NCBI GenBank assembly: GCA_020054865.1 | Contig: JAIHAR010000003.1 | Span: 39,645 to 103,644 of the forward strand | Direction: 5' to 3' | Source of the DNA: Deferribacteraceae bacterium | GTDB taxonomy: Bacteria > Chrysiogenota > Deferribacteres > Deferribacterales > Deferrivibrionaceae | Length of the DNA stretch: 64,000 nucleotides | Shown: piece after piece, positions 4,150-51,538 of the stretch | Layout of the letters: each line of letters opens with the position of its first letter | Numbering within the stretch: the stretch's first letter is position 1 | Position numbers and translations under genes: made by a program | The notes under the pieces: model-generated | The model's input: the letters and a program-made list of their open reading frames with translations, nothing else | Told to the model about the DNA's origin: nothing | Database searches by the model: none

Positions 4150-4169
4150 AACGCTTATTGGAGGAAAAC

Positions 4170-5690: not shown

Positions 5691-5700
5691 GAGGTGGAAT

Positions 5701-6234
5701 ATGGCTGTTAAAAGAAAATATTTTGCAAATGTAGAAGGGCACGAGGAAGAGCTTGTAGTTGATTTGACCGAGGTAAGCCCTTCAAACTATACAGTTGTTA
5801 TGGGGGAACAGGAATACAAAGTAGATTTTGAACAGATAAATGAAACAATATATTCAATTATCATAAATGGCAGGTCATATGCCATAGATATGAGTGAAAA
5901 AGGTGATAAGTTTGAAGTAATTGTTGATGGAGATAATTTTAATGTTGAAATCTTAGATGAGATGAAAAAGCTCATGAGGATGAGGACATCTTCAACAGTT
6001 GAGGGGAGACAGATCATAGAAGCACCTATGCCAGGCTATATCTGGAAAATGCTGAAAGAACCAGGTGATGAGGTCAAAGCTGGTGAGCCTATAATGATTC
6101 TTGTGGCGATGAAAATGGAGAATGAAATCAAGTCTCCAAAAGATGGTGTTGTTACAGAAATATTTGTCAAAGCCAGCGAAGACCCTAACGAAAGCACAGT
6201 CAAAATGGGTGATAAACTGGCAATAGTAGAATAA
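5701..6234 (+). CDS. biotin carboxyl carrier protein / biotinyl domain subunit
   Basis: 177 aa; C-terminal biotinyl-lysine motif (EAPMPG...VAMKMENEI). Confidence 0.8.
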   Translation: MAVKRKYFANVEGHEEELVVDLTEVSPSNYTVVMGEQEYKVDFEQINETIYSIIINGRSYAIDMSEKGDKFEVIVDGDNFNVEILDEMKKLMRMRTSSTVEGRQIIEAPMPGYIWKMLKEPGDEVKAGEPIMILVAMKMENEIKSPKDGVVTEIFVKASEDPNESTVKMGDKLAIVE

Positions 6235-6240
6235 ATTTAT

Positions 6241-6265
6241 GGGCCTGCTTAAACAGGCCCTTTTT
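6241..6265 (+). terminator. rho-independent terminator (GGGCCTG-cttaaa-CAGGCCC + T5)
   Basis: Perfect 7-bp GC stem followed by a T-tract directly after the BCCP stop codon. Confidence 0.75.
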
Positions 6266-6308
6266 ACAGATATTTGTATCTAATTTGTATTAAACAAAAG
6301 AGGTTTCT

Positions 6309-8471
6309 ATGAAAAAATATACTATTAAAGATTGGGAGAATCTCGCAAAAAAGGAAATTAAAAGTGACGATTTGTCAAAGCTTATATGGAATACCCCGGA
6401 GGGTTTCCCTGTAAAACCCCTTTATACGCTGGAAGATATTGAAAATCTTGAGACCATTAACACATTGCCAGGACTTGAGCCTTTTATAAGGGGTCCAAGA
6501 GCTACTATGTACACTGTAAAGCCATGGACAATAAGGCAGTATGCCGGGTTTTCTACTGCCGAAGAGTCCAATGCATTTTATAAAAAAAATCTTGCCGCAG
6601 GTCAGCAGGGGCTTTCTGTTGCTTTTGACCTTGCTACCCACAGAGGTTACGACTCAGACCATCCAAGGGTAGTAGGGGATGTGGGAAAGGCCGGAGTTGC
6701 TATTGATTCTGTTGAGGATATGAAAATTCTTTTTGACGGAATTCCGCTTGATAAAGTTTCTGTTTCTATGACAATGAATGGGGCAGTGATACCTATAATG
6801 GCAAATTTTATTGTTGCAGCAGAAGAGCAGGGGGTCAGTCAGGAAAAACTTGCGGGCACTATACAGAATGATATTTTAAAAGAATTTATGGTTAGAAATA
6901 CTTATATCTATCCGCCTGAGCCTTCAATGAGAATTGTGTCAGATATTATTGAATACACAAGCAAATATATGCCAAAGTTTAACTCTATCAGTATAAGCGG
7001 GTATCATATTCAAGAAGCAGGGGCAAATTGTGCGCTTGAACTTGCTTTTACTCTTGCTGATGGGCTCGAATATATCAGAGCTGCATTGTCAAAGAGTTTA
7101 AATATTGATCAGTTTGCGCCAAGACTGTCATTCTTTTTTGCTATCGGGATGAATTTTTTTATGGAAATTGCAAAGCTTAGAGCCGCAAGACTTTTGTGGT
7201 CTAAGATTGTAAACGAGTTTAATCCTAAGGATCCAAGATCGATGGCTCTAAGAACACACTGCCAGACATCAGGCTGGAGTCTGACCGAACAGGACCCTTA
7301 CAATAATGTTATAAGGACTACTATTGAAGCTATGGCTGCAGTCCTTGGTGGCACGCAGTCTCTTCATACAAATGCCCTGGATGAGGCAATCGCTCTACCT
7401 ACTGAATTTTCTGCAAGAATAGCAAGAAATACTCAGATTATTATTCAGGAAGAGACAAATATTTGTAATGTGATAGACCCTCTTGGAGGTTCATATTACA
7501 TTGAAACTCTTACCAATACGTTAGCTGAAAAGGCCTGGGAGATTATTGAAGAGGTTGAGGAGCTTGGAGGGATGACAAAAGCTATTGAAACAGGGATGCC
7601 AAAGCTCAGGATAGAGGAATCTGCTGCAAGAAAACAGGCAAGAATTGATGCAGGGCTTGATACTATTGTAGGTGTAAATAAATATAGACTTGAGAATGAA
7701 GTGCCAGTTGAAATCCTTGAGATTGACAATACTGCAGTGAGGGAAGCTCAAATCAGGCGTCTTAACAAGGTAAAGTCTGAAAGAAACAACGATGCTGTCA
7801 GAAATATACTTGAAAAATTGACAAAAGCTTGTGAAAATAAAAAAGAAAATCTTCTTGAAATTGCTGTTGAAGCAGCAAGACTTAGGGCAACTGTCGGTGA
7901 AATATCCGATGCTATGGAGAAGGTTTTTGGAAGGCATAAAGCTGAGGTAAGACTTCAATCAGGAGTATATATGAGTGAAGTTTCTGATAAAGAAGATTTT
8001 GTTCAGGTTAAAAATATTGTTGATAGTTTTGCCGAGGAGATTGGAAGAAGACCCAGAATACTTATTGCAAAGATGGGCCAGGATGGTCATGACAGAGGGG
8101 CAAAGGTTGTGGCCACAGGTTATGCTGATCTTGGTTTTGATGTAGATGTGGGGCCATTGTTTCAAACTCCTGAAGAAACTGCGAAAATGGCGGTCGAAAA
8201 TGATGTGCATGTGATAGGTGTGTCAAGTCTTGCAGCCGGACATAAGACACTTATTCCTCAACTTATAGAAGAATTGGAAAAACTTGGTGCTGATGATATC
8301 ATTGTAACAGCAGGTGGTGTAATTCCAAAGCAGGACTATGATTTTCTTTACAAAAGCGGTGTTGCATGTATTTTTGGCCCTGGCACTCCGATTCACAGGG
8401 CAGCAAAAGAGGTAGTTGAGGCAATAAAGGCAAAAAGATACCCAAAAGCAGTCAAAAATGCAAATAGATGA
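6309..8471 (+). CDS. methylmalonyl-CoA mutase, single-chain (catalytic barrel fused to C-terminal B12-binding domain)
   Basis: 720 aa; MCM catalytic-domain motifs; C-terminal cobalamin-binding DxHxxG ([12 protein letters not shown]). Confidence 0.85.
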
Positions 8472-9438
8472 AATAGTTAAAGGGGTGCTGTCTGGTAGCA
8501 GGCGGCACCTTGCCAAAGCTATAACTCTTATTGAAAGCAGAAGGGAAGAAGATTTCAGGAAGTCTCTTAAACTTCTTGATGCTATTGTACCATATTCGGG
8601 AAATTCTATAAGAATTGGGATAACAGGAACTCCCGGGGTTGGGAAAAGCACATTTATTGAATCATTTGGACTTTATCTGATTGATAAAGGTTACAAGGTC
8701 GCTGTTCTTGCAATTGATCCTTCTTCTCAAAAAACAGGTGGCAGCATTCTTGGTGACAAAACGAGAATGGAAGAACTCAGCAGACATGAGATGGCTTTTA
8801 TAAGGCCTTCTGCTTCCGGTAAAACGCTTGGTGGTGTTGCAAGAAAAACAAGGGAGTCCATGATAGCTTGTGAGGCAGCTGGTTACAATGCTATTTTGGT
8901 GGAAACAGTTGGAGTAGGTCAATCTGAGGTAGCGGTAGCAGATATGGTTGATGTTTTTACATTGCTTTTATTGCCAAATTCAGGTGATGAGCTGCAGGGG
9001 ATAAAGCGTGGGGTAATGGAGTTATCTGATATTATACTTGTGAACAAAGCAGAAGATGACAACCTTGATAAAGCAAAACTTGCAAAATCCCAAATTGAAA
9101 ACGCCCTGATGATGCTTTCCCAGAGGGATGACGGATGGAATGTGCCTGTAATACTGACAAGTGGGTTAAAAAAGTTTGGTTTTGATGATTATTTTGCTTC
9201 TTTAGTTGAGTTTTTTGATTTGATGAGAAAAAACGACTTTTTTCAAAAAAAAAGGCAATCTCAATATTTGTCCTGGATGTGGTCGATGGTTGATGACTAT
9301 ATAAAGGAAAAAATACATTCTGATAAACATATGAAAGAGATAATCGACAACTGTCAGGAAAAGATAGTTTTGAAGGAAGCATCCCCTTTTTCAGTGGCAG
9401 AAATTTTGATTGATAATCTGAAAAACATTTTTGAGTAG
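8458..9438 (+). CDS. meaB: methylmalonyl-CoA mutase-associated GTPase MeaB/ArgK
   Basis: 326 aa; P-loop [12 protein letters not shown]; overlaps the mutase stop, as in the conserved mcm-meaB arrangement. Confidence 0.8.
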
Positions 9439-10601: not shown

Positions 10602-11243
10602 TCAGGCTTTTAATTTATATCCCCTTCCTTTGTAGGTGATTATTGAATCTTCAGGGAGAATTTTACGTAAATTTTTTATATACGTTCTGATCGACTCTGT
10701 GCCAACGGGTTTGTCCCCCCAAACTCTTACAAGAATTTTTTCAAATTCGACAATTTCTCCCCTGTATCTGATTAATAGGCTCAGCAGTTCCCATTCAATT
10801 TTAGTAAGTGTAATCTCAATGTTATTTTTATAAAGTGTTTTTTCTTTTAGATTAATTTTTATATTGTCTATAGTTATGCAATCATCACAATAGACCCTTT
10901 TGGATAAAGCCTGTATTCTTAAAACAAGCTCCTTCGGGTCAAAAGGTTTTACGATATAGTCGTCACATCCGTTTTGGAAGCATATCTCCTTTGAGGCTAT
11001 GTCATCCTTAGCGGTAATAACTATTACCGGTATGTTAATGTTTTTATTCTTGAAAGTCCGAAGCAGGTTTTCACCTTTTTTGTCTTTAAGCATAAGATCA
11101 AGCAAAATAATGTCATAATTTTTAACTTCATAATATAAAGATTCATCAAAAGGGAAGCATATTTTCACTTCATACAATTCTTCCAGATACTCTTTCAATG
11201 ACTCAGCCAGTAAGATGTCATCTTCAATTATAGCTATTTTCAT
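10602..11243 (-). CDS. two-component response regulator, OmpR/winged-helix family
   Basis: 213 aa; receiver domain (IILLDLMLKDKKG) plus C-terminal winged-helix DNA-binding domain. Confidence 0.8.
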   Translation of the reverse strand: MKIAIIEDDILLAESLKEYLEELYEVKICFPFDESLYYEVKNYDIILLDLMLKDKKGENLLRTFKNKNINIPVIVITAKDDIASKEICFQNGCDDYIVKPFDPKELVLRIQALSKRVYCDDCITIDNIKINLKEKTLYKNNIEITLTKIEWELLSLLIRYRGEIVEFEKILVRVWGDKPVGTESIRTYIKNLRKILPEDSIITYKGRGYKLKA

Positions 11244-16187: not shown

Positions 16188-16221
16188 TTATTATCTATTG
16201 AATAACAATATGGAGGACATT

Positions 16222-18516
16222 ATGTCAAAAAAATCAAAATTTACCAAAGAAGATGCACTTTTATACCATTCAATGGGCAGGAAGGGTAAAATTGAGGTAG
16301 TGCCTACAAAGCCTTGTTTTACACAGAAAGACCTTTCTCTTGCTTATAGCCCGGGAGTTGCTTTTCCATGTCTTGAAATTGAACAAAACCCTGAACTTGT
16401 TTACGAATATACAGCCAAAGGTAATCTTGTAGCCGTAGTTTCAAACGGTACCGCAGTTTTAGGGCTTGGAAATATAGGTGCTCTTGCAGGTAAGCCAGTT
16501 ATGGAAGGGAAGGGTGTTCTTTTTAAAAGATTTGCCGATGTGGATGTTTTTGATATTGAAGTTAATTCTCAAAATCCTGATGATGTGATTAAAGCCTGTG
16601 AGCTTTTGGAGCCAACTTTTGGTGGGATTAATCTTGAAGATATCAAGGCTCCAGACTGTTTCTATATTGAAGAGACATTAAAAGAAAAGCTTGATATTCC
16701 AGTATTCCACGATGATCAGCATGGTACTGCTATTATATGTGCTGCCGCACTTTTGAATTCTCTTGAAATTGTAAATAAGAAAATTGAAAATGTTAAGGTT
16801 GTGATAAACGGAGCTGGTGCAGCAGGAATTGCCATTGCAAATCTTATAGTTGCATTAGGTGTCAAGAAGGAAAACTTAATCCTTTGTGACACAAAAGGGA
16901 TTGTTTATAAAGGGCGAACAGAAGGGATGAATAAATATAAGGAGTTGTTTGCTTTAGACACAAATCTCAGGACTCTTGAAGAGGCTATGGAAGGTGCTGA
17001 TATATTCCTTGGGCTTTCTGTGAAAGGTGCTGTTACCAAAAAAATGGTACAGTCTATGGCGAGGAATCCAATTATTTTTGCTATGGCCAATCCTGACCCT
17101 GAAATTACTCCTGAAGAAGTGGCTGAAGTCAGGGGGGACGCTATAATGGGTACAGGACGTTCCGATTATCCTAATCAGGTAAATAACGTGTTGGGATTCC
17201 CATTTATTTTTAGAGGTGCACTTGATGTAAGGGCAAGGAAAATCAATGAAGAGATGAAAATTGCGGCAGTAAAGGCACTTGCTGAGCTTGCAAAAGAAGA
17301 GGTACCTGAGTCTGTATGTAAGGCTTATGGACTTAAAAAAATAGAATTTGGAAAAGATTATGTTATACCAAAACCATTTGACCCAAGAGCATTGACGAGA
17401 GTTGCTCCTGCTGTTGCAAAAGCTGCTATAGAAACAGGGGTTGCAAGGGTAACAATAACAGATTGGGACGCATATAAGGCTTATCTTGAGTCAAGACTTT
17501 CAATAGCAAAAGAGTTTACAAGGCAAATTATAAACAATGCCAAAGAAACACCTAAAAAAATCGTTATGCCTGAAGGTGAATATGATAAGGTTCTTGTCGC
17601 TGCACATAAAATTGTTGAAGAAGGAATTGGTACTCCTATACTTTTAGGAAATGAAGAGGTAATAAAAGCCAAGGCCAAAAAACATAATCTTTCTCTTGAG
17701 GGGATTGAAATAATAAATCCTGAAAAATCCGATAAACTTACCCAATACACAGAGTATCTGTTTAATTTAAGACAGAGAAAGGGGATGACCTATATTGAAG
17801 CTGAAAGAAGGCTTGTGAAAATATTCAACTATTTTGGCGCAATGATGCTTCTCAATGGTGATGCGGATTGTCTTTTGACAGGATATTCGAGGAGTTATGC
17901 TGATTCAGTAAAACCTCTTCTTGAAACTATTCCTCTTAAAAAAGGGTACAAAGTTCCATCTGGTGCATATTTTATGGTATTTAAAAACAGGGTAGTTCTG
18001 TGTGCTGATACCACTGTAAATATTGAACCTGATGCCGAAGCACTTTCTCAGATTGCTATTCAATCTGCAGAAACATGTAAAAAGTTTGATATAGAACCTA
18101 AAATTGCAATGCTTTCATTTACTAACTTTGGTAGTGTAAAGATTCCAAGGACTATGAAGGTTGCAGAAGCTATGAGGCTTGTAAAAGAGAAGGATCCGAC
18201 ACTTGTTGTTGATGGAGATATGCAGGCTGATACTGCTACATATCCTCCAATAGCTGAAGAAGCATTTCCATTCTCTGCTATTAAAGGGGATGCAAATGTC
18301 CTTATTTTCCCAAATCTTGAAGCAGGGAACATTGCTTATAAACTCCTTTACAGGTTGGGAAATGGTACTGCAATAGGACCTATTTTGCAGGGTTTCTGTT
18401 ATTCAGCTCACGTGTTGCAAAGAGGAAGCGATGTGGATGAAATAGTTAATATGGCTGCAATTGCTGTAGTTGATGCAGAATATAAGAGGGTAAACAAAGA
18501 TAAGCTCTGTAAATAG
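16222..18516 (+). CDS. maeB: NADP-dependent malic enzyme (malic enzyme domain + C-terminal phosphotransacetylase-like domain)
   Basis: 764 aa from the RBS-supported ATG; malic enzyme NAD(P)-binding motif ([11 protein letters not shown]); C-terminal PTA-like domain. Confidence 0.85.
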
Positions 18517-19987: not shown

Positions 19988-20638
19988 ATGTACGAACATC
20001 TATTATCCTTGCAAAATAAGTTAGCAAAAAAAGTGATAATTTGTCCATATAAAAATAATATAAGACTTATTGGGGGTGTTGACGTTTCTTTTGAAAGGTT
20101 TTCAAATACGGGGTTTTGTTCTTTTGTTGTTTTGAATAAAAAATTTGAAATAGTTGAGGTTAAAAATGTAAAATTAACAGTAAAAATGCCTTATGTCCCC
20201 GGGCTTTTATCTTTCAGGGAGTTGCCTTTGATTTATCAGGCATACAAGAAATTGTCTTTTAAGCCGGATATAGTTTTTTGTGATTCGCAAGGGATAGCCC
20301 ATTCAAGAGGGTTAGGTCTTGCAAGTCATCTTGGAGTGGTATTAAACATTCCTGTTGTAGGTTGTGCCAAATCAAGGCTTGTAGGTGAGTATAACATACC
20401 GGGCAATAAAAAAGGAAATTACACATACTTGAAATACAGAGGGGAAAATGTGGGAGCAGTTTTGATAACCAAAGATAATTGCAAGCCAATGTTTATATCG
20501 CCAGGGCATTTAATTGATATAAAAACATCAATATTGACTGTATTAAAGTTTACAAAAAAATATAAAATACCTGAGCCTACAAGGGTAGCACATATTTTAT
20601 CAAATAGCTTCAGGCGTGAAGATTCAAATTTTTATTAG
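19988..20638 (+). CDS. nfi: endonuclease V (deoxyinosine 3' endonuclease)
   Basis: 216 aa; Nfi family pattern (GGVDVSF, FRE, GLASHLGV). Confidence 0.8.
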   Translation: MYEHLLSLQNKLAKKVIICPYKNNIRLIGGVDVSFERFSNTGFCSFVVLNKKFEIVEVKNVKLTVKMPYVPGLLSFRELPLIYQAYKKLSFKPDIVFCDSQGIAHSRGLGLASHLGVVLNIPVVGCAKSRLVGEYNIPGNKKGNYTYLKYRGENVGAVLITKDNCKPMFISPGHLIDIKTSILTVLKFTKKYKIPEPTRVAHILSNSFRREDSNFY

Positions 20639-21388
20639 TTAATTCAAGTCGTTTTCCTGAGTAGTATATTCAAAGGGCAAATCACAACCTTCAGGAATTT
20701 GAAATGGAATAGGGTATCTAATTCCTGCTTTGTGCGTAGCCTTAAGCCCATTGATTATTTCATCCTTCATTTTATAGGGGAATCCGACGGCAAGCTCGAA
20801 GTCCTGCGTCATAGCAAATCTTCTGTCCCCCAAACAGGGTATTTCGATTACAGGTTTGCCTTTTATGTATGTTTCTGCAACGGCTCGTGAGCAAACCCCG
20901 GCATCACCAGAAGAGCTGAAATCAAATTGTCCACCTTTTTCATATAAAAAAGCCTGTACCATTCTCATTGCCTGAGCAGTATTACAATAAAATACTACTA
21001 CGTCAGGCTCAATTCCTTCAATCGGTCTATTTAAAGGGTAGGTTAATACAGCCTTAATATCTTCATTTATTCTTGGCATATTTTGTTGCATATATTTTGC
21101 TGCATCTTTATCTTTTTGATAAATATTGCAATTGACTGTGCCTTCGATTACTCTTTCAGGTGTTTTTATCAAACCGGCACAGGATGCTCCCAACACACAG
21201 TAACTAAACTCTTTTGTTGCGATAGTCGACCACCCATAATATCTGGAATAAGCAATTTGCTGGCATACAGTTAACTTTTTATCTTTGACCTTTACTTTTA
21301 ATTCAGGTAATTCTTTTAAAAGATTTACTCCTACAGGGATAGTTTGAAGCCTTAAATATTTGTTTAATTCCTCAAATAAGTTTATCAT
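20639..21388 (-). CDS. DUF169-family protein
   Basis: 249 aa; recalled resemblance to DUF169; no catalytic motif recognised. Confidence 0.45.
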   Translation of the reverse strand: MINLFEELNKYLRLQTIPVGVNLLKELPELKVKVKDKKLTVCQQIAYSRYYGWSTIATKEFSYCVLGASCAGLIKTPERVIEGTVNCNIYQKDKDAAKYMQQNMPRINEDIKAVLTYPLNRPIEGIEPDVVVFYCNTAQAMRMVQAFLYEKGGQFDFSSSGDAGVCSRAVAETYIKGKPVIEIPCLGDRRFAMTQDFELAVGFPYKMKDEIINGLKATHKAGIRYPIPFQIPEGCDLPFEYTTQENDLN

Positions 21389-21801
21389 AATTTTACCTCA
21401 CTAAAAGCTTTTAAAACATCGCCCAATGAAACAATACCAACAAGCTTACCGTTATCTACAACAGGGACGCGGTGAATATATTTTTCCAGGAAAATTTTTG
21501 CTACATTTCTGATATCTTCATCGCTTGTAACGACAATTGGAGGTTTGCCCATTACTGTTGAAACAGGAGGTGATGTTAATTCCTGAACATCTATCATAGG
21601 TATTTTTTCTGCTTCTTCCAGTATGTCAGGCAATTTGTCAAGGATATCCGTTTCACTAAAAACCCCTACAACATTTTCATCCGAATCAAGGACAGGGACT
21701 CCTGAGATTTTGTGCCTTCTTAGAATAATAACAGCATCTTTAATGGATTGATCAGCTTTAACAGAAATAACATTTTTAGTCATAATCTCTTTTACTTTCA
21801 T
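21385..21801 (-). CDS. CBS-pair domain protein
   Basis: 138 aa; two CBS repeats; 4-nt overlap with the downstream gene. Confidence 0.8.
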   Translation of the reverse strand: MKVKEIMTKNVISVKADQSIKDAVIILRRHKISGVPVLDSDENVVGVFSETDILDKLPDILEEAEKIPMIDVQELTSPPVSTVMGKPPIVVTSDEDIRNVAKIFLEKYIHRVPVVDNGKLVGIVSLGDVLKAFSEVKL

Positions 21802-21879
21802 ATTTTCTCCCTATTAATAAAAATTTTGTTTGTAAATATAACATTATTTCAATTTTGTAAAGCTTTATTTGTGTATTTT

Positions 21880-23802
21880 TTAAAGCCCTACAATTTTTGC
21901 AAAATGTCTTCGTGTTGTATCTTGCAGTTTATCAGCTACTTTAAATGCTTCTTTTAAAAGCTCCTGTTCATTTTTTGGGAGTGTATATGGGTCTAAATAA
22001 TGAGACGGCTTTTTGTTTTCATCTAATAGTTTTATCTCATTTTTCAGCCTTATATACGTAAAAAACTCAAAAGCGGCCTTAATATGCTCCAATGTGGCTG
22101 AATTAAAGATTCCTAATTCATGTAATTTGTCCAGTCTTTCCATTGTGTTAGTTTGCGGTAGACCATGTTCAAGGCAATACATTCTTATGCAGTCGACTAT
22201 AAAAATACTACCATTTTCCTTTACAGAAAGCTCACCTTTATGTTCTTCTTGATCAGAAGTAATAAATCTATTTAGAAGCCCCAGTGGGACTTTGTGTTTG
22301 TAGTCAAGCTCCATCATTTTAAATAAGAATAGCATATTATTTTTAATTTCTTCAAATATATGTTCTTTTAACTGCATGCAAAGTTTAGGTTCTCCCACCA
22401 GAGAAAAAAGGTCAAAAAATATTGTTGAATACCTGACACGTTGAGGCTCAGGAACTCTTATCCATTTGCTAACTCTCTTTTTCCATTCGGATATTTTGCC
22501 TCTCCATAATGGATTATTTGCCATAACTTTACCATTACAAAGAGGGTATCCTACTTCATTCAAGGCGTTTACCAGATATTCTGCAAAGGGTACAAAAAAG
22601 TTACTTACTTCGCCTTCCATTTCATTAGGGTAGTCTTCAAAAATCAGCCCATTATCCTGATCAGGGCCTAAAAGCATCTCCCTTCGGCCGCCACTACCCA
22701 TTATTATAAAGGAGTATTTGATATCTGGCAAAACACAGCCCTCTGAAAGACGTTTCTCCATAACAATTTCAAAGCACCTTTTTATGATATTGTGGTGAAT
22801 ATATGAAATTATCTCCATGGTTTCTACATGAGACCTGTTTTCCATCAAAAGAACTTTAGCAACCGAGGTTATTTCGTTTTTAACATTTTTTAATTCCTTG
22901 ATTGATGTTGCCTCTTTAACTTTTCCTACCAGAAGTACCGTTTTCTGACTTCTGAATTTCATCAGGTCTCTTACAGTTACAATTCCTATGATTTTATCAT
23001 TTTCCAGTACCGGAAGATGTCTTATGTTGTGGCTGATCATAAATGCTGCAACTTCATACATATATGATTCAGGGGATACGTAAAAAGGATCGGGAGTCAT
23101 TACCTCTTTTGCTTTCATATCTTTAAGGCATACCCCGGTATCTCTTGCCAAAACTTTTGTCACTAAATCCCTTTCCGTAATTATCCCTTTTAATTTTCCA
23201 TTACTATCACAAACAAGAAGCGAGCCTACCCCTTTTACAGTCATTATTTTTGCTATCTTACCTACTGTGGTATCCTCACTGCATACTTCTACAGGTGAAG
23301 ACATTATCTCTCTCACCTGCTTTTGGAAAGGGTATGCTTCAATTTGAGCTATAGGGTCAGAAGATTGTGACTTTACTACATCATGGTATAATTTCCTGAT
23401 TTTGGAAAAAACTGCCTTACTGAAAAATCTGGTAATTTCCGGGTACGATTGTGCCAGGTTGAGAATAACTTCTTTGGGAATCAAGATGCATTCTGTTTTA
23501 TCTACAGTCCTGGCACCTGCAGAGTAACCGCCATCAGTAAATATAGGTGTCCAGCCAAAGAATTCTCCATCTTTCCTGTAATCGACGACTATTTCTACCC
23601 CTTCTTCAGTTTCAGATATGATTTCCACTGCCCCTTTGTGAATAAAATAAAGGTAACCTGTAGGAGTGTCTTTTTGAGAAAATATTAATGTGTCAGCATC
23701 ATATGTTTTAAAAAGGCAGGTATCTTGGATTATTTTAAAATTATCTTCAGATATTACGTTGAAAGGTTTAACTGTTTTTAAGAAATCCAACATTGGTATC
23801 AT
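21880..23802 (-). CDS. cNMP-binding + tandem CBS + DUF294 nucleotidyltransferase signalling protein
   Basis: 640 aa; N-terminal CAP-like cNMP-binding fold, two CBS domains, NTase core GSGGRREMLLGPDQDNGLIFED, DUF294_C-like tail. Confidence 0.75.
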   Translation of the reverse strand: MIPMLDFLKTVKPFNVISEDNFKIIQDTCLFKTYDADTLIFSQKDTPTGYLYFIHKGAVEIISETEEGVEIVVDYRKDGEFFGWTPIFTDGGYSAGARTVDKTECILIPKEVILNLAQSYPEITRFFSKAVFSKIRKLYHDVVKSQSSDPIAQIEAYPFQKQVREIMSSPVEVCSEDTTVGKIAKIMTVKGVGSLLVCDSNGKLKGIITERDLVTKVLARDTGVCLKDMKAKEVMTPDPFYVSPESYMYEVAAFMISHNIRHLPVLENDKIIGIVTVRDLMKFRSQKTVLLVGKVKEATSIKELKNVKNEITSVAKVLLMENRSHVETMEIISYIHHNIIKRCFEIVMEKRLSEGCVLPDIKYSFIIMGSGGRREMLLGPDQDNGLIFEDYPNEMEGEVSNFFVPFAEYLVNALNEVGYPLCNGKVMANNPLWRGKISEWKKRVSKWIRVPEPQRVRYSTIFFDLFSLVGEPKLCMQLKEHIFEEIKNNMLFLFKMMELDYKHKVPLGLLNRFITSDQEEHKGELSVKENGSIFIVDCIRMYCLEHGLPQTNTMERLDKLHELGIFNSATLEHIKAAFEFFTYIRLKNEIKLLDENKKPSHYLDPYTLPKNEQELLKEAFKVADKLQDTTRRHFAKIVGL

Positions 23803-23808
23803 AAGATA

Positions 23809-24183
23809 TCAGTCAATTTCCTTTTTTTTCCCAAATATAGGATGAGCTTGTGATTTAATTATAAAATCACCGAAAATTTTAAACCATATTGTTACCCCGG
23901 CAATGCCTGTCCACTTTTGATAAGGGTAAGCCAGAAACAAGACGCCTATTATCGCCCATAATGTGGCAATTCCTGCCCCAAGATTGAGGATTCCAACAAA
24001 AGGAGCCCATTTTTTGGGGTTTTTGGGTGGCTCTCCTCTTTTTAAAGCCACATTCGAGTAATCTTTTTTTATAAAGATTGTGTAAGCCCTCCTAAGCCAG
24101 ATAAATGCCAACGGGAAAAGCGCAATAAATAAAATCCAAGTCACAGCCATATTGGTATCAATTATTAAATTATCCATATTCAC
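23809..24183 (-). CDS. small 2-TM membrane protein of unknown function
   Basis: 124 aa; two hydrophobic helices and a lysine-rich C-terminus; 6-nt gap to the downstream gene. Confidence 0.45.
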   Translation of the reverse strand: MNMDNLIIDTNMAVTWILFIALFPLAFIWLRRAYTIFIKKDYSNVALKRGEPPKNPKKWAPFVGILNLGAGIATLWAIIGVLFLAYPYQKWTGIAGVTIWFKIFGDFIIKSQAHPIFGKKKEID

Positions 24184-24281: not shown

Positions 24282-26087
24282 TTAGTGATCTACAGCGGCA
24301 CCAGCACCTTTAGGATAGCGAACGCTTTCTACCATTTCAGCTATATCATGAGGAACAGGTGTAGTCATGTTTTTCACAGCAAAGGCAACTATGAAGTTTA
24401 CAATTGCTCCTATTGTACCAAATGCATTTGGTTCAATACCAAGGAAGAAGTTTGGTTTGCCACCAAAAAGGCCAAGGAATTCAGTCCCTTTGATAAAGAA
24501 GATACCTTTGTGGGCAAAAACGTATAGCATTGTTACACCAATACCAGCTATCATACCGGCAATTGCACCCTGCCTATTCATAGTCTTGCTGAAGATACCC
24601 ATCATAAGTGCAGGGAATATTGAGCTTGCTGCAAGTCCAAATGCTATTGCAACGGTACCGGCAGCAAAGTCAGGAGGGTTCATACCAAGATAACCAGCAA
24701 CTACAATAGCACAAGCCATTACAATTCTTCCTGCCATAAGCTCCCCTTTTTCGGAAAGATCTTTCATGAACATGTTTTTCAACAGGTCATGTGAGATCGC
24801 TGATGATATTGCAAGCAAAAGACCAGCAGCAGTTGAAAGAGCAGCCGCAAGACCACCGGCAGCAACAAGGCCAATTACCCAGTTAGGAAGTTTAGCGATT
24901 TCAGGGTTAGCAAGAACCATAATATCGTTATTAACTGAAAGTTCGTTCCCTTTCCAGCCTGCAGCTTCTGCCTTTGCCAGGAAGTCTTTATCTTTGGATT
25001 TGTCATTGTAATACTGGATACGTCCATCTCCATTTTTGTCAGTAAACTTAAGCAAGCCAGTTACTTCCCAGCGCTTCATCCAGTTTGGACGTTCATCAAT
25101 CAGAATGCTTGATTCTGGAGCAAAAACATCTCCACCCTTAACAACAGCCTTGTTAACAGTTGCATGAAGATTAAGTCTTGCCATAGCAGCAACAGAAGGA
25201 GCTGTTGTGTAAAGGATAGCTATGAATACAAGAGCCCAACCGGCGGAGCTTCTTGCATCCCTTACCTTTGGTACAGTAAAGAAGCGTATAATAACGTGAG
25301 GAAGCCCCGCAGTACCAATCATCAAAGACATGGTGTAAACAAACATATTCAGTTTACTTAATCTTGGGGTATTAACGTAAGAAGCAAAGCCAAGATCTTT
25401 TACAATATGGTCAAGTTTTTCAAGAAGATACATGTCTGAGCCTTCAAACCCTGAGCTAAGGCCAAACTGAGGAATAGGGTTGCCGGTAAGATGTAAAGAT
25501 ATGAAAATCGCTGGAATAGTGTAAGCTAAAATTAATACACAGTACTGTGCTACCTGAGTGTATGTAATTCCTTTCATACCACCAAAAACTGCATATACAA
25601 AAACTATTGCCATACCAATTAAGACACCAAGGTTATTAGAAACGCCCAAGAATCTTGAAAAGGCAACACCAACGCCTGTCATCTGACCAATAATATAAGT
25701 GGTGGAAGCAATAAGAAGACAAATAACAGCAACAATAGCTGCTCCATCAGAATAATATCTTGTCTTAAAAAACTCTGGTACAGTGTATTTCCCAAATTTT
25801 CTCAAATATGGGGCAAGAAGAAGGGCAAGAAGAACATATCCACCTGTCCAACCCAGCAAAAACACTGCTCCACCATATCCCATAAATGCAATAAGACCCG
25901 CCATAGAGATGAAAGACGCTGCTGACATCCAGTCTGCACCAGTTGCCATACCATTAACTACAGGGTGAACACCACCACCTGCTACGTAAAACTCTTTAGT
26001 GCTACCAGCACGAGACCAGATAGCAATACCGATATAAAGTGCAAAAGTAAGACCAACAATTATATACGTTGTAACCTGTAAACTCAT
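24282..26087 (-). CDS. actP: cation/acetate symporter ActP (sodium:solute symporter family)
   Basis: 601 aa; 13-14 TM helices; SSS family pattern; preceded by a DUF485 gene as in the yjcH-actP arrangement. Confidence 0.85.
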   Translation of the reverse strand: MSLQVTTYIIVGLTFALYIGIAIWSRAGSTKEFYVAGGGVHPVVNGMATGADWMSAASFISMAGLIAFMGYGGAVFLLGWTGGYVLLALLLAPYLRKFGKYTVPEFFKTRYYSDGAAIVAVICLLIASTTYIIGQMTGVGVAFSRFLGVSNNLGVLIGMAIVFVYAVFGGMKGITYTQVAQYCVLILAYTIPAIFISLHLTGNPIPQFGLSSGFEGSDMYLLEKLDHIVKDLGFASYVNTPRLSKLNMFVYTMSLMIGTAGLPHVIIRFFTVPKVRDARSSAGWALVFIAILYTTAPSVAAMARLNLHATVNKAVVKGGDVFAPESSILIDERPNWMKRWEVTGLLKFTDKNGDGRIQYYNDKSKDKDFLAKAEAAGWKGNELSVNNDIMVLANPEIAKLPNWVIGLVAAGGLAAALSTAAGLLLAISSAISHDLLKNMFMKDLSEKGELMAGRIVMACAIVVAGYLGMNPPDFAAGTVAIAFGLAASSIFPALMMGIFSKTMNRQGAIAGMIAGIGVTMLYVFAHKGIFFIKGTEFLGLFGGKPNFFLGIEPNAFGTIGAIVNFIVAFAVKNMTTPVPHDIAEMVESVRYPKGAGAAVDH

Positions 26088-26099
26088 ATTATCCCCTCC

Positions 26100-26360
26100 T
26101 TAATCTTCTTCTACGTCAAATTCTTTGTCAATTTTACCAATAAGTTTTGCGTAGATAAATATCAATGCTACGAAAACATAGATAGAGCCCTGATGCGCAA
26201 ACCAAAATCCGAGAGGGGTTCCACCCAGTTTAATATTGTTGAGAGGCTCAACAAAAATAATGGCTAAAACATAACCGAATATAAACCAGATTATTAAAAT
26301 GTTACGAATTAGAGCCAAATTTTTTTTCCAATAGGCTTCGAGTCTTTCCTTGTCTACCAT
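26100..26360 (-). CDS. DUF485 (YjcH-like) small membrane protein
   Basis: 86 aa; two TM helices; 12 nt upstream of actP; RBS GTGAGGTG. Confidence 0.75.
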   Translation of the reverse strand: MVDKERLEAYWKKNLALIRNILIIWFIFGYVLAIIFVEPLNNIKLGGTPLGFWFAHQGSIYVFVALIFIYAKLIGKIDKEFDVEED

Positions 26361-26561
26361 AAAAACACCTCACTTAAATATTAAGTTAAAAAAAAGTGTA
26401 CCTTCGTTGCCTTGGCACCTGCCCGACCGCTTCTTTTCATCACCTCCTTATTATTTTTGCAAAGCAGGTAATGTATCTTCATAAAATCCCCCTATGTGGA
26501 AATTAATATAATATTGTTTTATTAATGTCAATAATTAATTTGAGATAAATATTTGAATTTA

Positions 26562-26599
26562 AGTGTACTTGGTATACTGTACACTGGATACTGTATACA
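26562..26599. promoter_or_regulatory. cluster of TGTAYAC-type palindromes / tandem 14-mers (candidate operator) between divergent actP operon and acs-like gene
   Basis: AGTGTAC-N10-GTACACT inverted repeat (26562-26585), palindrome TGTATACA (26592-26599), direct repeat TGG(T)ATACTGTAYAC x2. Confidence 0.4.
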
Positions 26600-26781
26600 A
26601 TATTTTATAAAATATTGATTAATTTATTTAAAAATATAATAAAATATCTAACAGTGTTATAGATATGCGATTATTTCTAAAAAAAATATATAACATTTTT
26701 TTATTTTAATTTTGATTAATTATAAAAAATGCTATTGATTGTTATTTTGGTTCAAAAATAAGCAAATTTTCAAAATTTTAT

Positions 26782-26846: not shown

Positions 26847-28721
26847 ATGGTTTACGAGCTTATTAATGAGGCAAATAAAAAGTATAAGAGGCATTTTCTT
26901 ACACCTGAAGATATTGATAATCTGAAAAAGATGCCGTATATGGATGTGGCTGATTATGTCGGGAAGAATTTTATCGAGTGGGAAGAGCAATATAGTCAGG
27001 TATTTGAATACAACAAGCCGCCAAGGTATACATTTTTTAAAGGTGGAAGACTCAATCCATTTTATAATATCCTCGAAAAACATCTTTATAGTAAAAATAA
27101 AAACAAGGCTGCAATAATATGGAGGGGCTCTGACTATACCGAAAAAATATTTACATATCAGTCTATCGCATTTGAGGCTTCAAAACTTGCTTACGCGTTC
27201 AAAAAATTAGGGGTTAAAAAAGGGGATAGGGTACTGATTTATTTACCCAATATTCCTGAAGCAGTAATTACAATGCTTGCTTGTGTAAGAATAGGCGCTG
27301 TCCATGCCCTGTATCATTATAGCTATTCTGCCGAGGCTTTGAAGGAGAGGATAGAAGACTGTGAGCCCTCTATAATTGTTACAACAAATTATAGTCTTAC
27401 AGGTAATGAGCTTGATGTTAAGACTAAAGTGGATGAAGCCTTGAAAAAATCAAATTATCAGCCAAAACATGTTGTTGTAGTGGAAAGGATTCCTAAAAAA
27501 GCACATATGAAGCCACTGAGGGATTTATGGTATCACGATTTACTAAGTGATACCGATTTTAAAGAAGCAATGACACTTGAGCCCACAATCTTAAACAGTG
27601 ATGAACCTTTATTTATAATGATTACCACCACTCATTTTGTTGAACCAAAAGGGCTTGCCTACAGTATTGCGGGGTTTCTTGCCTGGGCACATTTTACTTT
27701 TAAACTAATTTTTGACCCAAAAGATGAAGATACAATCTGGAATATGTCTGATGTGGCCTGGATGAATAGCCACAACTATAAAATTTATGGTCCTCTGATG
27801 GCAGGAACCACTTCAGTTATGTTTGAAGACTCGATACATATGCAAAATGCAAGAAGGTTTTATGGTATTGTGGAAAGGTATAATGTAAACAAATGTTATA
27901 CTTCTCCCAGAGTTATAAGGGCACTAATGAGTGCGGATATGAGAAAAAGGGTATTTGAACGTCTTGATAATCTCGAGCTTTTTTTTCTGGGCGGTGAACA
28001 GATTGATGAGGAGCTTTTGAACTGGCTATTTAAAAAACTTGGTAAGAGTAAAATGCCTGTATTAAATGTGTATTCTGCAACTGAGCTTGGTTCGGCGATA
28101 ACTGCTCAGTTACCAGGGTATTCTGAAGTTAAACAAAACTCGGTTGGTCAGCCTTTGCCAGGTGTTGATCTTGGCATTTATGACAGCATCACCAAGACAA
28201 AAATAAAATGTCATAACGAAAAGGGGCTTGTATCTATTGAAAAACCACTGATGTCAATGTGCAGCAAACTTTGTCATGGAGAAGAATTGTTTTATAAGAC
28301 TTTTTGGAAAAATTTTGACGGTAAGTATGTTTTCAGAATAGGTGACGCAGGATATTTTGATGAAGAGAGTCATTTTTATCTCACGGGAAGAATTGATGAC
28401 GTCATACACGTCGGTGGAAAGAGGATCAATTTGCAACAGGTTGAAGATGCCATCAATAAACATAAGCTTATAAAAGAATCTGCTATTATTATACTAAATG
28501 ATGAGAAAAAAGGGGATTCTATTATTGCATTTTGTGTTTTAAAGAAAAATGTGGATGAAAGTTCATACAGCTTGATAATAGATGAAATAAATGAGGTTAT
28601 TATAGAAGAGCTTGGTGAGTCGGTGCTGCCTCAGGAAATAAAATTTGTGAGAGTATTGCCAAAAGGGGCGGAAGGGAATATTTTGAAAGATTTGCTAAAA
28701 GAGATAGCTATGCAAATGTAA
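26847..28721 (+). CDS. acetyl-CoA synthetase-family (AMP-forming) paralog with degenerate P-loop and Lys->Asn at the catalytic position
   Basis: 624 aa from the RBS-supported ATG; Acs-like A7/A8 block (GDAGYFDEESHFYLTGRIDDVIHVGGKRI); degenerate motifs detailed in findings. Confidence 0.75.
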   Translation: MVYELINEANKKYKRHFLTPEDIDNLKKMPYMDVADYVGKNFIEWEEQYSQVFEYNKPPRYTFFKGGRLNPFYNILEKHLYSKNKNKAAIIWRGSDYTEKIFTYQSIAFEASKLAYAFKKLGVKKGDRVLIYLPNIPEAVITMLACVRIGAVHALYHYSYSAEALKERIEDCEPSIIVTTNYSLTGNELDVKTKVDEALKKSNYQPKHVVVVERIPKKAHMKPLRDLWYHDLLSDTDFKEAMTLEPTILNSDEPLFIMITTTHFVEPKGLAYSIAGFLAWAHFTFKLIFDPKDEDTIWNMSDVAWMNSHNYKIYGPLMAGTTSVMFEDSIHMQNARRFYGIVERYNVNKCYTSPRVIRALMSADMRKRVFERLDNLELFFLGGEQIDEELLNWLFKKLGKSKMPVLNVYSATELGSAITAQLPGYSEVKQNSVGQPLPGVDLGIYDSITKTKIKCHNEKGLVSIEKPLMSMCSKLCHGEELFYKTFWKNFDGKYVFRIGDAGYFDEESHFYLTGRIDDVIHVGGKRINLQQVEDAINKHKLIKESAIIILNDEKKGDSIIAFCVLKKNVDESSYSLIIDEINEVIIEELGESVLPQEIKFVRVLPKGAEGNILKDLLKEIAMQM

Positions 28722-29607: not shown

Positions 29608-30045
29608 TCAGTTACCCCCTTTTAAACATTTTTCACATATACCAAAAAGATTTAGCTGATATTCTTCTACTTTTCCCTTTAATTCATTAAAATTTATATC
29701 AATATCAAAAATGTCGTAAACGGCACCACACTTATTGCAGTAAAAATGTCCATGGTTTGATAAATCCGGGTCAAACCTGCTGCATTTAGGGTCTGTTGAA
29801 ATCTGTCTGACAATCCCAGATTTTACAAGTACATCAAGTGTGTTATAAACTGTTGCAAAAGAGAAACTTTTATCTTTTGACCTGAGCTGCTCATAGATTT
29901 CAACTGCAGATGGGTGGGATGTGTTGTTTTCAAGAAATTCAACAATCCATTTTCTTGGTTTTGTTATTTTAAAACCCTCTTTTTTCAATGCTTCAATGGC
30001 TCTTTGCGAAAACATGCTCATCTCCTTAAGGTTTATTAAGTCCAC
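29608..30045 (-). CDS. Fur-family metalloregulator (Fur/Zur/PerR)
   Basis: 145 aa; winged-helix N-terminus; HGHFYC and two CxxC pairs (CNKC, CEKC). Confidence 0.8.
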   Translation of the reverse strand: MDLINLKEMSMFSQRAIEALKKEGFKITKPRKWIVEFLENNTSHPSAVEIYEQLRSKDKSFSFATVYNTLDVLVKSGIVRQISTDPKCSRFDPDLSNHGHFYCNKCGAVYDIFDIDINFNELKGKVEEYQLNLFGICEKCLKGGN

Positions 30046-41983: not shown

Positions 41984-42970
41984 ATGTCTTTGATGGAAAA
42001 GTTTTGGCAAATGGCAAAAGAAAAACAGGGGACAGTTGTATTGCCCGAAGGTGTTGACGAAAGAACAATTGATGCTGCACACACTATTTCAAAAAATGGT
42101 CTGGCTAAGGTAATTGTTTTAGGTGAAGAAGAAAAGGTAAAGAATCTTTTTAAGTCAAAAGGATACCCTGTGGATTGTGAAATAATTGAGCCTGAAAAGA
42201 GCAAGTATTATGAAGAATTTGTAACGGAGTATTATGAAAAAAGAAAGTCAAAAGGGATGACTCTTGATGAGGCGAGAGCTTCCATGAAAGATGTTAATTA
42301 CTTCGGTTGTATGCTTGTTGAAAAAGGGGTTGCAAATGGTGCAGTTACGGGCGCCTGCCATACAACTGCAGACGTGTTGAGGGCTGCTATAAGGGTAATC
42401 GGTACAAAGCCTGGGATGAAAACGGTTTCAAGTTGTTTCATTATGGTGACTCCCAAAAAAGAATTTGGGAAAGATGGCGCAGTATTGTTTGCTGACTGTG
42501 CTGTAAACCCCAATCCGGATGCAAGAACTTTGGCAGAAATTGCTCTTGCCACAGCTGATAGCTGTAAAGCCTTTTTGGGGGTTGAGCCTAAGGTTGCAAT
42601 GTTGTCGTTTTCAACCAAAGGGAGTGCGAGTCACCCTGATGTTGATAAGGTTCTTGAGGCGTTAAAAATTTCAAAAGAGATGGCTCCTGAACTAAAAATT
42701 GACGGTGAATTGCAGGCAGATGCAGCACTTTTAAAAAGTGTCGGGGAGAGAAAAGCGCCTGGTAGCGATGTCGCCGGAAGTGCAAACGTATTGATATTCC
42801 CTGATCTTGATGCAGGAAATATAGGGTACAAGCTTGTAGAAAGGGTTGCTTCTGCAGAAGCGATAGGCCCTATTATTCAGGGTTTGAAAAAACCTGTCAA
42901 TGATTTGTCAAGGGGTTGCAAGTATATGGATATTGTTAATGTAGCTGCCATCACGATGGTACAATCTTAA
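41984..42970 (+). CDS. pta: phosphate acetyltransferase (short PTA form)
   Basis: 328 aa; PTA_PTB fold pattern; immediately upstream of ackA. Confidence 0.85.
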
Positions 42971-42983
42971 AGGGGGATTAGTT

Positions 42984-44228
42984 ATGAAAATTCTTGCGCT
43001 TAATTGCGGTAGTTCATCAGTAAAATATCAACTTTTTGATTGGGAAGAAAAAAAGGTTGTGGCAAAAGGTGTTGTTGAAAGAGTTGGTATAGGGGACTCT
43101 TTTATTATACATGAAGTTCCTGGCAGGGATTCTTATAGAAATGAGTATGAATGTCACGATCATAATACTGCTATAAATCTTGTTGTTAATACTCTTGAAA
43201 GTAAGGAAAATGGTGTTATTGAGAAAATTAGCGAAATTTCTGCCGTAGGTCATAGGGTCGTTCATGGAGGGGAAAGGTTCAAAAGTAGTGTGCTTATCGA
43301 TGATAAGGTTATAAAGGCGATAGAAGATGTTCAGAATCTTGCACCACTGCATAATCCACCAAACCTTGCGGGGATAAGAGCTGCTAAAGCTGTTTTACCT
43401 GATGTTCCTCATGTGGCAATATTTGATACGGCTTTTCATCAATCAATGCCTGATTATGCTTATACATATGCCATTCCTTATGAATGGTACAAAGAGTACG
43501 GCGTAAGAAGATACGGTTTTCATGGCACAAGCCATCTGTACGTATCAAAGAGGGCGGCAGTACTTCTGGGGAAAGATCCTAAAGATTGTAATATAATTAC
43601 AATGCATATAGGAAACGGTGTATCCCATACTGCAATAAAAAATGGGAAGTCTGTTGACACGTCAATGGGCCTGACGCCACTTGAAGGTGCTGTGATGGGG
43701 ACCAGGTGCGGAGACCTTGATCCGGCTGTCCCACTGTTTATGCAGCAGCAACTCAATGTTGGACCAAAAGAAATGGACAGCTTGCTTAACAAGAAATCAG
43801 GTATTCTTGGTATTACAGGTAAATATACGGACAGAAGGGATGTGCTGGAACACGTGGATACAGATGAGAGGTGCAGACTTGCTATCGAAATAGAGGCGTA
43901 TAGGCTTAAAAAATATATTGGCGCTTATTATGCTGTTCTTGGCAGAGTAGATGCTATTGTGTTTACTGCAGGTGTTGGCGAAAACGCAGGTATTATTAGG
44001 CAAAAGGCCTTAGAAGGGCTTGAGGAACTTGGTATAAAAATTGATAAAGATAAAAATCTTAAAACATTCAGCAAGTCGGGAGAAACTGAAATTTCCACTC
44101 CTGACTCAAAGGTTAAGGTTTTTGTGATTCCTACAAACGAAGAACTCGTCTTCGTGGAGGATGTGGTTGCAATATTGCAAAATACCTACAAAGATCACAC
44201 AGAATATCCATACTCATTTCTAAAATAA
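42984..44228 (+). CDS. ackA: acetate kinase
   Basis: 414 aa; characteristic AckA motifs (LNCGSSSVKYQLF, VHGGE, HLGNG, EGxxMGTRxGDLDP). Confidence 0.9.
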   Translation: MKILALNCGSSSVKYQLFDWEEKKVVAKGVVERVGIGDSFIIHEVPGRDSYRNEYECHDHNTAINLVVNTLESKENGVIEKISEISAVGHRVVHGGERFKSSVLIDDKVIKAIEDVQNLAPLHNPPNLAGIRAAKAVLPDVPHVAIFDTAFHQSMPDYAYTYAIPYEWYKEYGVRRYGFHGTSHLYVSKRAAVLLGKDPKDCNIITMHIGNGVSHTAIKNGKSVDTSMGLTPLEGAVMGTRCGDLDPAVPLFMQQQLNVGPKEMDSLLNKKSGILGITGKYTDRRDVLEHVDTDERCRLAIEIEAYRLKKYIGAYYAVLGRVDAIVFTAGVGENAGIIRQKALEGLEELGIKIDKDKNLKTFSKSGETEISTPDSKVKVFVIPTNEELVFVEDVVAILQNTYKDHTEYPYSFLK

Positions 44229-51049: not shown

Positions 51050-51078
51050 TTGACATTTGGTTTAAATAAGACTAATAT
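51050..51078 (+). promoter_or_regulatory. near-consensus sigma70 promoter for the Rrf2 gene (TTGACA 51050-51055; 17-nt spacer; TAATAT 51073-51078)
   Basis: Optimal spacing; predicted TSS ~51085; RBS AAGAGG 51096-51101; ATG 51111. Confidence 0.55.
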
Positions 51079-51110
51079 TGTCTAAATTAAGTTTGCAAGA
51101 GGTATTAGTT

Positions 51111-51512: not shown

Positions 51513-51518
51513 AGTAGT

Positions 51519-51538
51519 TTACATATTATTAAATGTAA
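51519..51538. promoter_or_regulatory. inverted repeat TTACAT-N8-ATGTAA between the Rrf2 gene and nrdJ
   Basis: Perfect 6-bp arms starting 7 nt after the Rrf2 stop; shares the TACAT/ATGTA half-site with the palindrome at 45040-45053. Confidence 0.3.

Follow-up and report, generated by a model that had tools for sequence, protein, structure and literature searches.

In this study, we analyzed a divergent intergenic region in a 64-kb stretch of DNA from a Deferribacteraceae bacterium (the window; position 1 is its first letter). The region, 486 bp long, separates a minus-strand transporter operon from a plus-strand gene for an Acs-like ligase, and it carries an array of contiguous 7-bp units built on the palindromic hexamer GTATAC. 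The operon has four conserved genes, followed by CBS and DUF169 genes. By profile search, the first gene (26100-26360, minus strand) encodes the small symporter subunit DUF4212/TIGR03647 (PF13937), and the second (24282-26087, minus strand) encodes the large subunit, a VC_2705-family sodium:solute symporter (SSF; TIGR03648, 814.6 bits). A small hydrophobic membrane protein comes next (23809-24183, minus strand; 122 amino acids here, 122-124 within this operon type, in which it is kept). The last conserved gene (21880-23802, minus strand) encodes a putative nucleotidyltransferase of the COG2905 type with cNMP-binding, CBS, and DUF294 domains. The initial annotation had named the transporter pair DUF485 and ActP. 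Neither label was borne out: the small protein is DUF4212/TIGR03647, and ActP models gave the large subunit only 145-178 bits against cut-offs of 750-1099. The divergent gene (26847-28721, plus strand; start at 26847 or 26814) encodes an AMP-forming ligase that scored below the equivalog cut-offs in the profile search. Homologous DUF4212 transporters are needed for the use of lactate or D-alanine, not specifically acetate, and COG2905 (DUF294-type) homologues are cofit with the DUF4212 transporter (bioRxiv 10.1101/072470). Acetate as the substrate is therefore read from the neighboring gene. These results correct the annotation of the locus, which is not DUF485-ActP and does not necessarily have acetate as its substrate.

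The core array (26572-26598, no strand assigned) consists of four contiguous units, each a GTATAC-like palindromic hexamer plus one spacer base, with a period of 7 bp. On the plus strand it reads GTATAC (26572) T GTACAC (26579) T GGATAC (26586) T GTATAC (26593), and in the operon orientation GTATAC A GTATCC A GTGTAC A GTATAC. It was defined by its sequence, by chance tests, and by in-register conservation in six related loci (L085, L086, L087, L091, L093, and L096). The repeats described in the initial annotation were all found: AGTGTAC at 26562-26568 and GTACACT at 26579-26585 with N10 between them, the palindrome GTATAC at 26572-26577, the 8-bp palindrome TGTATACA at 26592-26599, and a 14/15-bp direct repeat at 26570-26584 and 26585-26598. 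Positions 26562-26599 read AGTGTAC tt GGTATAC TGTACAC TGGATAC TGTATAC A. The 14-mer direct repeat is two heptads taken together, and the periodic array of four heptads is the most economical description of all these repeats. AGTGTAC (26562-26568, no strand assigned), the left arm of the inverted repeat, holds an extra, species-specific GTGTAC unit (26563-26568), which is set off by 3 nt and lies outside the 7-bp register. The inverted repeat that had been put forward as the main feature is thus present in the window, but its left arm aligns to unconserved sequence in all relatives. These results indicate that the unit to be considered is an array of three to four GTATAC heptads and not the AGTGTAC-N10-GTACACT dyad.

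The departure of this array from chance was then estimated. The bare 7-mer TGTAYAC was not enriched in the window (9 observed, 8.98 expected), and clustering alone was unusual. The three-unit pattern GTATACNGTATACNGTATAC, allowing up to 3 mismatches, gave two overlapping matches at the array against 0.01 expected. Array runs were defined as at least three units at a 7-bp period, each matching at least 5/6 positions. Such runs were found in 0 of 200 simulated 64-kb sequences and at a rate of 1.6e-4 per 486 bp in sequence of intergenic composition, where 4-unit runs numbered 0 in 3 Mb. Across 1.15 Mb of compared DNA, arrays of at least three units occurred at this position only. The frequency check therefore had two outcomes, with the single motif at the level of chance and its clustering far above it. 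The array is a non-random repeat.

The hexamer GTATAC was mildly rare in the window (5 observed, 9.2 expected), and two of the five copies lay within the array. GTATAC belongs to the known target types of restriction-modification systems, and its rarity would fit an epigenetic switch, in which clustered targets of a GTATAC- or GTAC-specific DNA methyltransferase tune the binding of a regulator. However, the depletion is weak, no methyltransferase gene was seen nearby among the annotated open reading frames (ORFs) of the window, and the array is kept across lineages that are unlikely to share one restriction-modification system. We consider an epigenetic switch very improbable.

Conservation was examined in seven lineages, namely the window, L085, L086, L087, L091, L093, and L096 (Deferribacter desulfuricans SSM1). 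Loci L085, L086, and L087 were reached via Acs homologues, and L091, L092, L093-L095, L096, and L097/L098 (Seleniivibrio) via the small membrane protein. Four units were found in L085 (GTATAC T GTATAC A GTACAC T GTATAC), L086 (GTATAC T GTATAC A GTGCAC T GTATAC), L091 (GTATAC T GTATAC A GTGTAC T GTATAC), and L096 (GCATAC T GTATAC A ATATAC A GTATGC). L087 (GTATAC A GTATGC A GTATAC) and L093 (GTATAC A ATATAC A GTATAC) had three, so that the copy number was 3-4 in all seven lineages. The 3-unit arrays are without the promoter-proximal unit and retain the register. Over the 26 units, the six hexamer positions were G24, T25, A23, T24, A23, and C26, and the spacer was A15/T10/C1. Since the hexamers are near-invariant and the spacers variable, selection has acted on the hexamers and not on the spacer. 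Among 8-mers in the 330 bp upstream of DUF4212, only those of the array and of a TTGACA promoter block were common to 7/7 lineages, and the array was the best-conserved block of the intergenic region. The comparative footprinting proposed in the initial annotation thus came out in favor of the element, which is kept in seven lineages while its flanks diverge.

The pattern of conservation also bears on two explanations that involve no regulator. Metagenomes commonly contain tandem (GTATACN)n repeats, some as long as about 40 units, and the array could on that ground be a functionless heptanucleotide microsatellite produced by replication slippage. Against this, the copy number is fixed at 3-4, the spacers are mixed A/T within arrays while the hexamers are conserved, and the arrays of L081-L083, strains 99.8% identical overall, are identical despite differences elsewhere. 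The position relative to the promoter is likewise fixed across lineages in which Acs is only about 42-81% identical. A microsatellite is hardly credible on this evidence. The other explanation invokes the structure of the nucleic acid itself: the array would fold into a DNA cruciform or, if transcription began further upstream, into an RNA hairpin. The array is palindromic as a whole, a 12-bp stem with a loop of 3 nt could form in L096, and operon-facing extended -10-like words lie about 100 bp upstream in L085 and L091. However, the spacers that must pair are non-complementary (A/A or T/T) in four of the five four-unit arrays, the 3-unit arrays break the symmetry, and no U-tract follows the array. 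Such a structure is accordingly given very little credence. In L096 the array forms a near-perfect palindrome of 27 bp, with substitutions mirrored between its outer units (GCATAC...GTATGC), and this mirror symmetry suggests a two-fold symmetric complex.

The array keeps a fixed distance to the promoter-like block of the transporter operon. A TTGACA hexamer (26526-26531, minus strand) was invariant in all lineages in the alignments, and its sequence points to a -35 role. The distance from the distal array edge to the first base of TTGACA was 66-67 bp in 7/7 lineages. The roughly 40 bp between the array and TTGACA were poorly conserved in sequence, and the distance from TTGACA to the ATG varied from 150 to 171 bp. 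The array position is therefore fixed relative to a promoter-like box, the promoter itself being predicted. Downstream of the hexamer, a conserved block in two alignments comprises the spacer and a -10-like region, ..ATAAAACAATATTATATTAA (26503-26525, minus strand). Candidate -10 hexamers are TATATT (15-nt spacer) and TATTAA (17-nt spacer), and a consensus promoter scan gave no call at 26503-26525. With TTGACA as the -35 box, the array would span roughly -76 to -103. A sigma-54 promoter with an upstream activating site was also considered and rejected, as inspection by eye revealed no -24/-12 element in the leader.

The array and the promoter block can be separated in nature. In L092 (1924-2137), the match to L091 begins about 20 bp upstream of TTGACA and takes in the core promoter and the operon, and a divergent gene for an SMC_N/AAA_21 ATPase stands in place of the array and acs. 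Because the promoter block is kept without the array, the array is an upstream modulatory element that lies outside the core promoter.

We compared the transporter operon and acs as possible targets. The initial annotation had read the dyad as an operator for coordinate control of acetate uptake and activation. In this reading, a dimeric or tetrameric repressor of the GntR, IclR, or Rrf2 type would bind AGTGTAC-N10-GTACACT and co-regulate the transporter and the acs-like gene. The divergent arrangement is kept in five or six lineages, which favors the proposal, and so do extended -10-like words facing acs, 5-57 bp beyond the array in L085, L086, L087, and L091. A bound complex could therefore also influence acs in these four genomes, where the words are perfect (TGTTATAAT and TGCTATTAT). 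In the relatives they precede the acs ATG by 38-58 nt and 133-203 nt, and degenerate versions, TGTTATAGA and TGCTATTGA, occur in the window (26655-26663 and 26729-26737). In L085 and L091, TGTTATAAT/TGTTATACT is also found facing the operon, some 320 nt before the DUF4212 start. The evidence against a bidirectional operator is broader. The left arm of the dyad is not conserved, and the array persists without acs in L096, where the divergent neighbor is hsp20 and the array is at the same place. No array was found at the unlinked acs of D. desulfuricans (L219) or at the Calditerrivibrio-like acs loci L088-L090. The distance from the array to candidate acs promoters is variable, whereas that to the transporter promoter is fixed. 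Coordinate control is thus not supported, and we regard the bidirectional operator as improbable. Since the array stays with the operon when acs is elsewhere and unlinked acs genes are without it, the conserved target is the transporter operon. In the divergent arrangement, the array may still have an effect on acs.

These results suggest that the array is probably a conserved protein-binding regulatory array for the DUF4212-SSF operon. The broader proposal of a regulatory operator was upheld insofar as the array behaves like a protein-binding site, with a footprint over seven lineages and a fixed promoter distance, but its place about 40 bp upstream of the -35-like box is not the classic one for an operator that acts by occlusion. 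We predict that it functions like a multi-site operator or upstream activating site. In the model that follows, we infer protein binding, the promoter assignment, the direction of regulation, the regulator family, and the effector. The array would be an upstream cis-regulatory element for the promoter of the DUF4212-SSF-membrane protein-DUF294 operon. A sequence-specific regulator would bind with one dimer per palindromic hexamer, and neighboring dimers would bind cooperatively into a higher-order complex with its two-fold axis through the array center. At a fixed distance and helical phase to TTGACA, this complex would modulate the recruitment of RNA polymerase. The signal would be the availability of the transported carboxylate. 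The regulator would be encoded elsewhere in the genome, most likely as a GntR/FCD-type winged-helix protein or a ribbon-helix-helix (RHH) protein.

As to the direction of regulation, activation from a class-I-like upstream activating site would be favored over repression by nucleation or looping. We rate activation slightly higher because the spacing is strict across divergent sequence, as in contact-dependent activation. The alternative is an upstream repressor site, at which a repressor nucleates and then either oligomerizes across the AT-rich tract or loops to a weak second site, as LldR reportedly does with its O1 and O2 sites. A perfect TTGACA with an AT-rich, UP-like tract is typical of strong promoters that need repression. 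In Patescibacteria contigs, a near-identical array overlaps the promoter. Furthermore, most GntR/FCD and RHH proteins act as repressors, and DNA is looped by the tetramer of Atu1419 (PMC7797058). On the other hand, no conserved second GTATAC unit was found in the promoter or 5' untranslated region (UTR), and the strict 66-67 bp spacing is more typical of contact-dependent activation. We therefore regard the upstream repressor site as possible, if unlikely.

Several observations weigh against an upstream regulatory array for the transporter operon. The Seleniivibrio loci L097 and L098 have the operon and no array, and L092 is a natural variant that retains the promoter and has no array; the array is therefore not essential for the operon's existence. 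No second array site was found in about 120 kb of Deferribacterota DNA searched, so no regulon backs the motif. The promoter was assigned by sequence alone, and its -10 element is poor and was missed by the consensus scan. The perfect -35 box and AT-rich upstream tract would fit a strong promoter in need of repression and not of activation. Winged-helix dimers that each cover about 10 bp or more could collide when spaced 7 bp apart. Finally, no regulator gene was found adjacent to the operon in the window or at any orthologous locus, and the only transcription factors in the window are an OmpR-type response regulator (10602-11243), a PerR-like Fur-family protein (29608-30045), and an Rrf2 protein (51078-51512), none of which is linked to the operon.

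The regulator family was considered on this basis. The initial annotation had listed GntR among its candidates. Operators with a GTATAC core are documented for this family (PMC11472048, PMC7797058), which speaks for it, but the annotated ORFs, which cover most of the window up to about 55.8 kb, include no GntR-domain gene. A tblastn search with a GntR/FCD protein gave no match in the window or the Deferribacterota loci. In a rough split, we give GntR/FCD-like proteins the largest share, well short of an even chance. RHH proteins receive about half of that and other winged-helix proteins somewhat less again, and all remaining families together come to about a quarter. Two candidates within the locus were also weighed. 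The 122-amino-acid operon protein was ruled out as a possible regulator, as it is a hydrophobic membrane protein. A Fur-family 7-1-7 reading is a low-probability idea: the PerR-like gene lies two genes away in conserved synteny, but this synteny is absent from D. desulfuricans, where the array persists. To our knowledge, the motif is also unlike the known Fur, PerR, or Zur boxes.

Two further features adjoin the array and the promoter block. A perfect 20-bp palindrome, CAATATTTTATAAAATATTG (26598-26617, no strand assigned), was detected by an inverted-repeat scan and alignment and adjoins the distal array edge. At this position the relatives retain only a looser ACAATAT(A)TTGT-like word, which in D. 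desulfuricans is a perfect 12-bp palindrome. AACAATAT was found again in the promoter spacer, and the 20-bp palindrome may therefore be a second binding site. In the presumed 5' UTR, a Shine-Dalgarno-like AAGGAGGTGAT (26439-26449, minus strand) is followed by AGGTCGG and a T-run, and it was conserved in the alignments. Some 80-90 nt separate it from the true DUF4212 start, and all relatives keep it (region to 26361). No reading frame after it is conserved; a 33-codon ORF is present here, and a 40-amino-acid ORF was called in another frame in D. desulfuricans. The intergenic region had no Rfam match at the gathering threshold or at E<=1, and no conserved covarying fold was found in the leader (consensus fold energy, -0.55 kcal/mol). 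A leader peptide or attenuator in the 5' UTR was ruled out, as neither the reading frame nor a consensus fold is conserved, and a structured cis-regulatory RNA (riboswitch or attenuator) was rejected for want of an Rfam match and a conserved fold.

Other observations concern the genes of the locus and their surroundings. The window organism belongs to the Deferribacterota, and its Acs shares 81% identity with the protein of 'Deferribacterales bacterium Es71-Z0220' and 64% with one from Calditerrivibrio. A look-up of the SSF protein led only to contigs of the same species. When genome contigs were searched with the SSF protein, the matches listed were all from Proteobacteria and Desulfobacterota, with 62-80% identity (L001-L080), and the large subunit was 75-80% identical to proteins of Desulfuromonadales and Rhodoferax, which belong to other phyla. 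This DNA was discarded as a footprinting set because of its high GC content. The GC content of the SSF gene (24282-26087) is 0.40, and that of its surroundings is 0.33-0.36. The transporter module may thus have been either very strongly conserved or transferred laterally. In D. desulfuricans (L219, 3293-7114), the gene order is endonuclease V, acs, CBS, and DUF169. In the window (19988-23802), CBS and DUF169 come after the DUF294 gene, with endonuclease V just beyond. As the gene order is shuffled between genera, the CBS and DUF169 genes accompany either acs or the transporter operon. Genes for short-chain acid metabolism are abundant in the window (2605-9438, 16198-18516, 41984-44228, and 51078-53987) and include propionyl-CoA carboxylase-like subunits, methylmalonyl-CoA mutase with MeaB, a malic enzyme-PTA fusion, and pta-ackA. 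A gene for a class II-like ribonucleotide reductase directly follows that of the Rrf2 regulator.

Similar arrays were sought in metagenomes by a pattern scan with GTATACNGTNNNCNGNNNACNGTATAC, and what follows refers to the matches listed. Microsatellites of the (GTATACN)n type, as long as about 40 units and uniform in the spacer base (L109, L114, L155, L158, L167, L206, and others), made up the bulk of them, and they held no further Deferribacterota loci. Three Patescibacteria-type low-GC contigs carry the 4-unit array GTATAC A GTATAC A GTRWAC T GTATAC (L145, 1642-1668; L186, 3083-3109; L104, 1159-1185). There it lies over the promoter and start codon of a gene for a wHTH-PRTase protein of about 325 amino acids, with a winged helix and a ComF-like PRTase domain. 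These arrays share with ours the four units, the 7-bp period, and the degenerate third unit, whereas their place over the gene's own promoter and start has the geometry of autorepression. The L186 array is preceded at 2 bp by a TTGACA box and followed at 1 bp by the ATG, an arrangement suggestive of a leaderless and autoregulated gene. The wHTH-PRTase family has more than 3500 members, and the named matches in the best 120 of more than 3500 were all Patescibacteria. No homologue was found in the Deferribacterota DNA compared, and those best 120 matches, all of Patescibacteria type, included none from the Deferribacterota.

Three unrelated high-GC contigs have an array 37-170 bp upstream of a GntR/FCD gene (L172, 9187-9213; L106, 3924-3950; L205, 1077-1103), and L172 has a second GTATAC cluster about 35 bp further upstream. 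In addition, 20 viral contigs of IMG/VR (L220-L239) contain intergenic arrays of 4-6 units beside small ORFs, which had no match in Pfam. Three of them (L222, L226, and L239) and the metagenome locus L133 share the flank GGTGGGGCGCATGA. From these associations, winged-helix regulators would appear to use contiguous GTATAC heptads as a recurrent type of operator. The associations do not name the regulator protein of the Deferribacterota.

A further, rather doubtful proposal is that the GTATAC heptad array is the operator of a new DNA-binding mode, in which metabolite-sensing chromosomal regulators of distant phyla place one dimer on each contiguous 7-bp palindrome as a helical tetramer of dimers. 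If true, this binding mode would span the Deferribacterota transporter operon, Patescibacteria wHTH-PRTase genes, high-GC GntR/FCD genes, and phage intergenic regions; an architecture of one dimer per heptad is so far documented only for plasmid RHH proteins. Within this proposal, the Deferribacterota regulator might cooperate with the cNMP-CBS-DUF294 nucleotidyltransferase of the operon.

Deferribacterota are acetate- and lactate-oxidizing anaerobes from vents, oil reservoirs, and guts. We know of nothing reported on their transcriptional control, and the literature searched described no regulator motif for this phylum. The conserved 27-bp array would be a precise bait for capturing the regulator of the DUF4212-SSF-DUF294 operon, which is widespread and poorly understood. 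The near-identical arrays beside GntR/FCD and wHTH-PRTase genes in unrelated bacteria suggest a common, undescribed operator architecture of contiguous palindromic heptads.

The array was finally compared with known systems. In Vibrio and Pseudomonas, acs and acetate uptake are under the control of CrbS/CrbR (MxtR/ErdR), a two-component system whose response regulator is of the LuxR type. It resembles the present locus in the regulated uptake and activation of a carboxylate with SSF-type proteins. However, no such two-component genes flank the DUF4212-SSF operon, and as far as we know the CrbS/CrbR motif is unrelated to the GTATAC array. GntR/FCD proteins respond to carboxylic acids and regulate genes of catabolism and transport (PMC11472048, PMC7797058). 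DipR of Alcaligenes faecalis binds GTATAC or GWATAC (PMC11472048), and a dimer of Atu1419 of Agrobacterium fabrum, a tetrameric protein, covers ATGTATACAT (PMC7797058). Operators of this type are palindromes with a GT..AC core, for example (A)TGTATACA(T); the units here are GTATAC, and TGTATACA is found at 26592-26599. The known GntR/FCD sites are single, or are two palindromes 109-190 bp apart, and overlap promoters, whereas here three to four contiguous palindromes at 7 bp lie about 40 bp upstream of a -35-like box, with neither an adjacent cognate gene nor an overlap with the promoter.

Among RHH proteins, the omega heptads are reportedly WATCACW in sequence, non-palindromic, and arranged as 7-10 units over plasmid promoters with a role as centromere. 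By contrast, the unit here is GTATAC plus W, and the setting is a metabolic operon on the chromosome, with no small RHH-like ORF beside it. What the array shares with omega is the contiguity of 7-bp units in at least two to four copies. Omega (ParB-pSM of pSM19035) binds such contiguous heptads cooperatively with one dimer each, in either orientation, and partition is fully active only with four or more contiguous units (PMC9499535). CcdA, the RHH antitoxin of the F plasmid, nucleates on three GTATAC palindromes and draws its affinity from multivalency (PMC5389731). Its operator differs in covering 113 bp with eight sites that overlap the promoter and in autoregulating a toxin-antitoxin module. 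Moreover, the toxin CcdB is required as a bridge, and CcdA alone barely discriminates hexamer sequences. The array thus departs from each of the GntR/FCD, CcdA, and omega families in at least one feature, be it the lack of an adjacent cognate gene, the position, or the unit sequence. It combines the core sequence of GntR/FCD and CcdA operators with the omega-like contiguity of 7-bp units.

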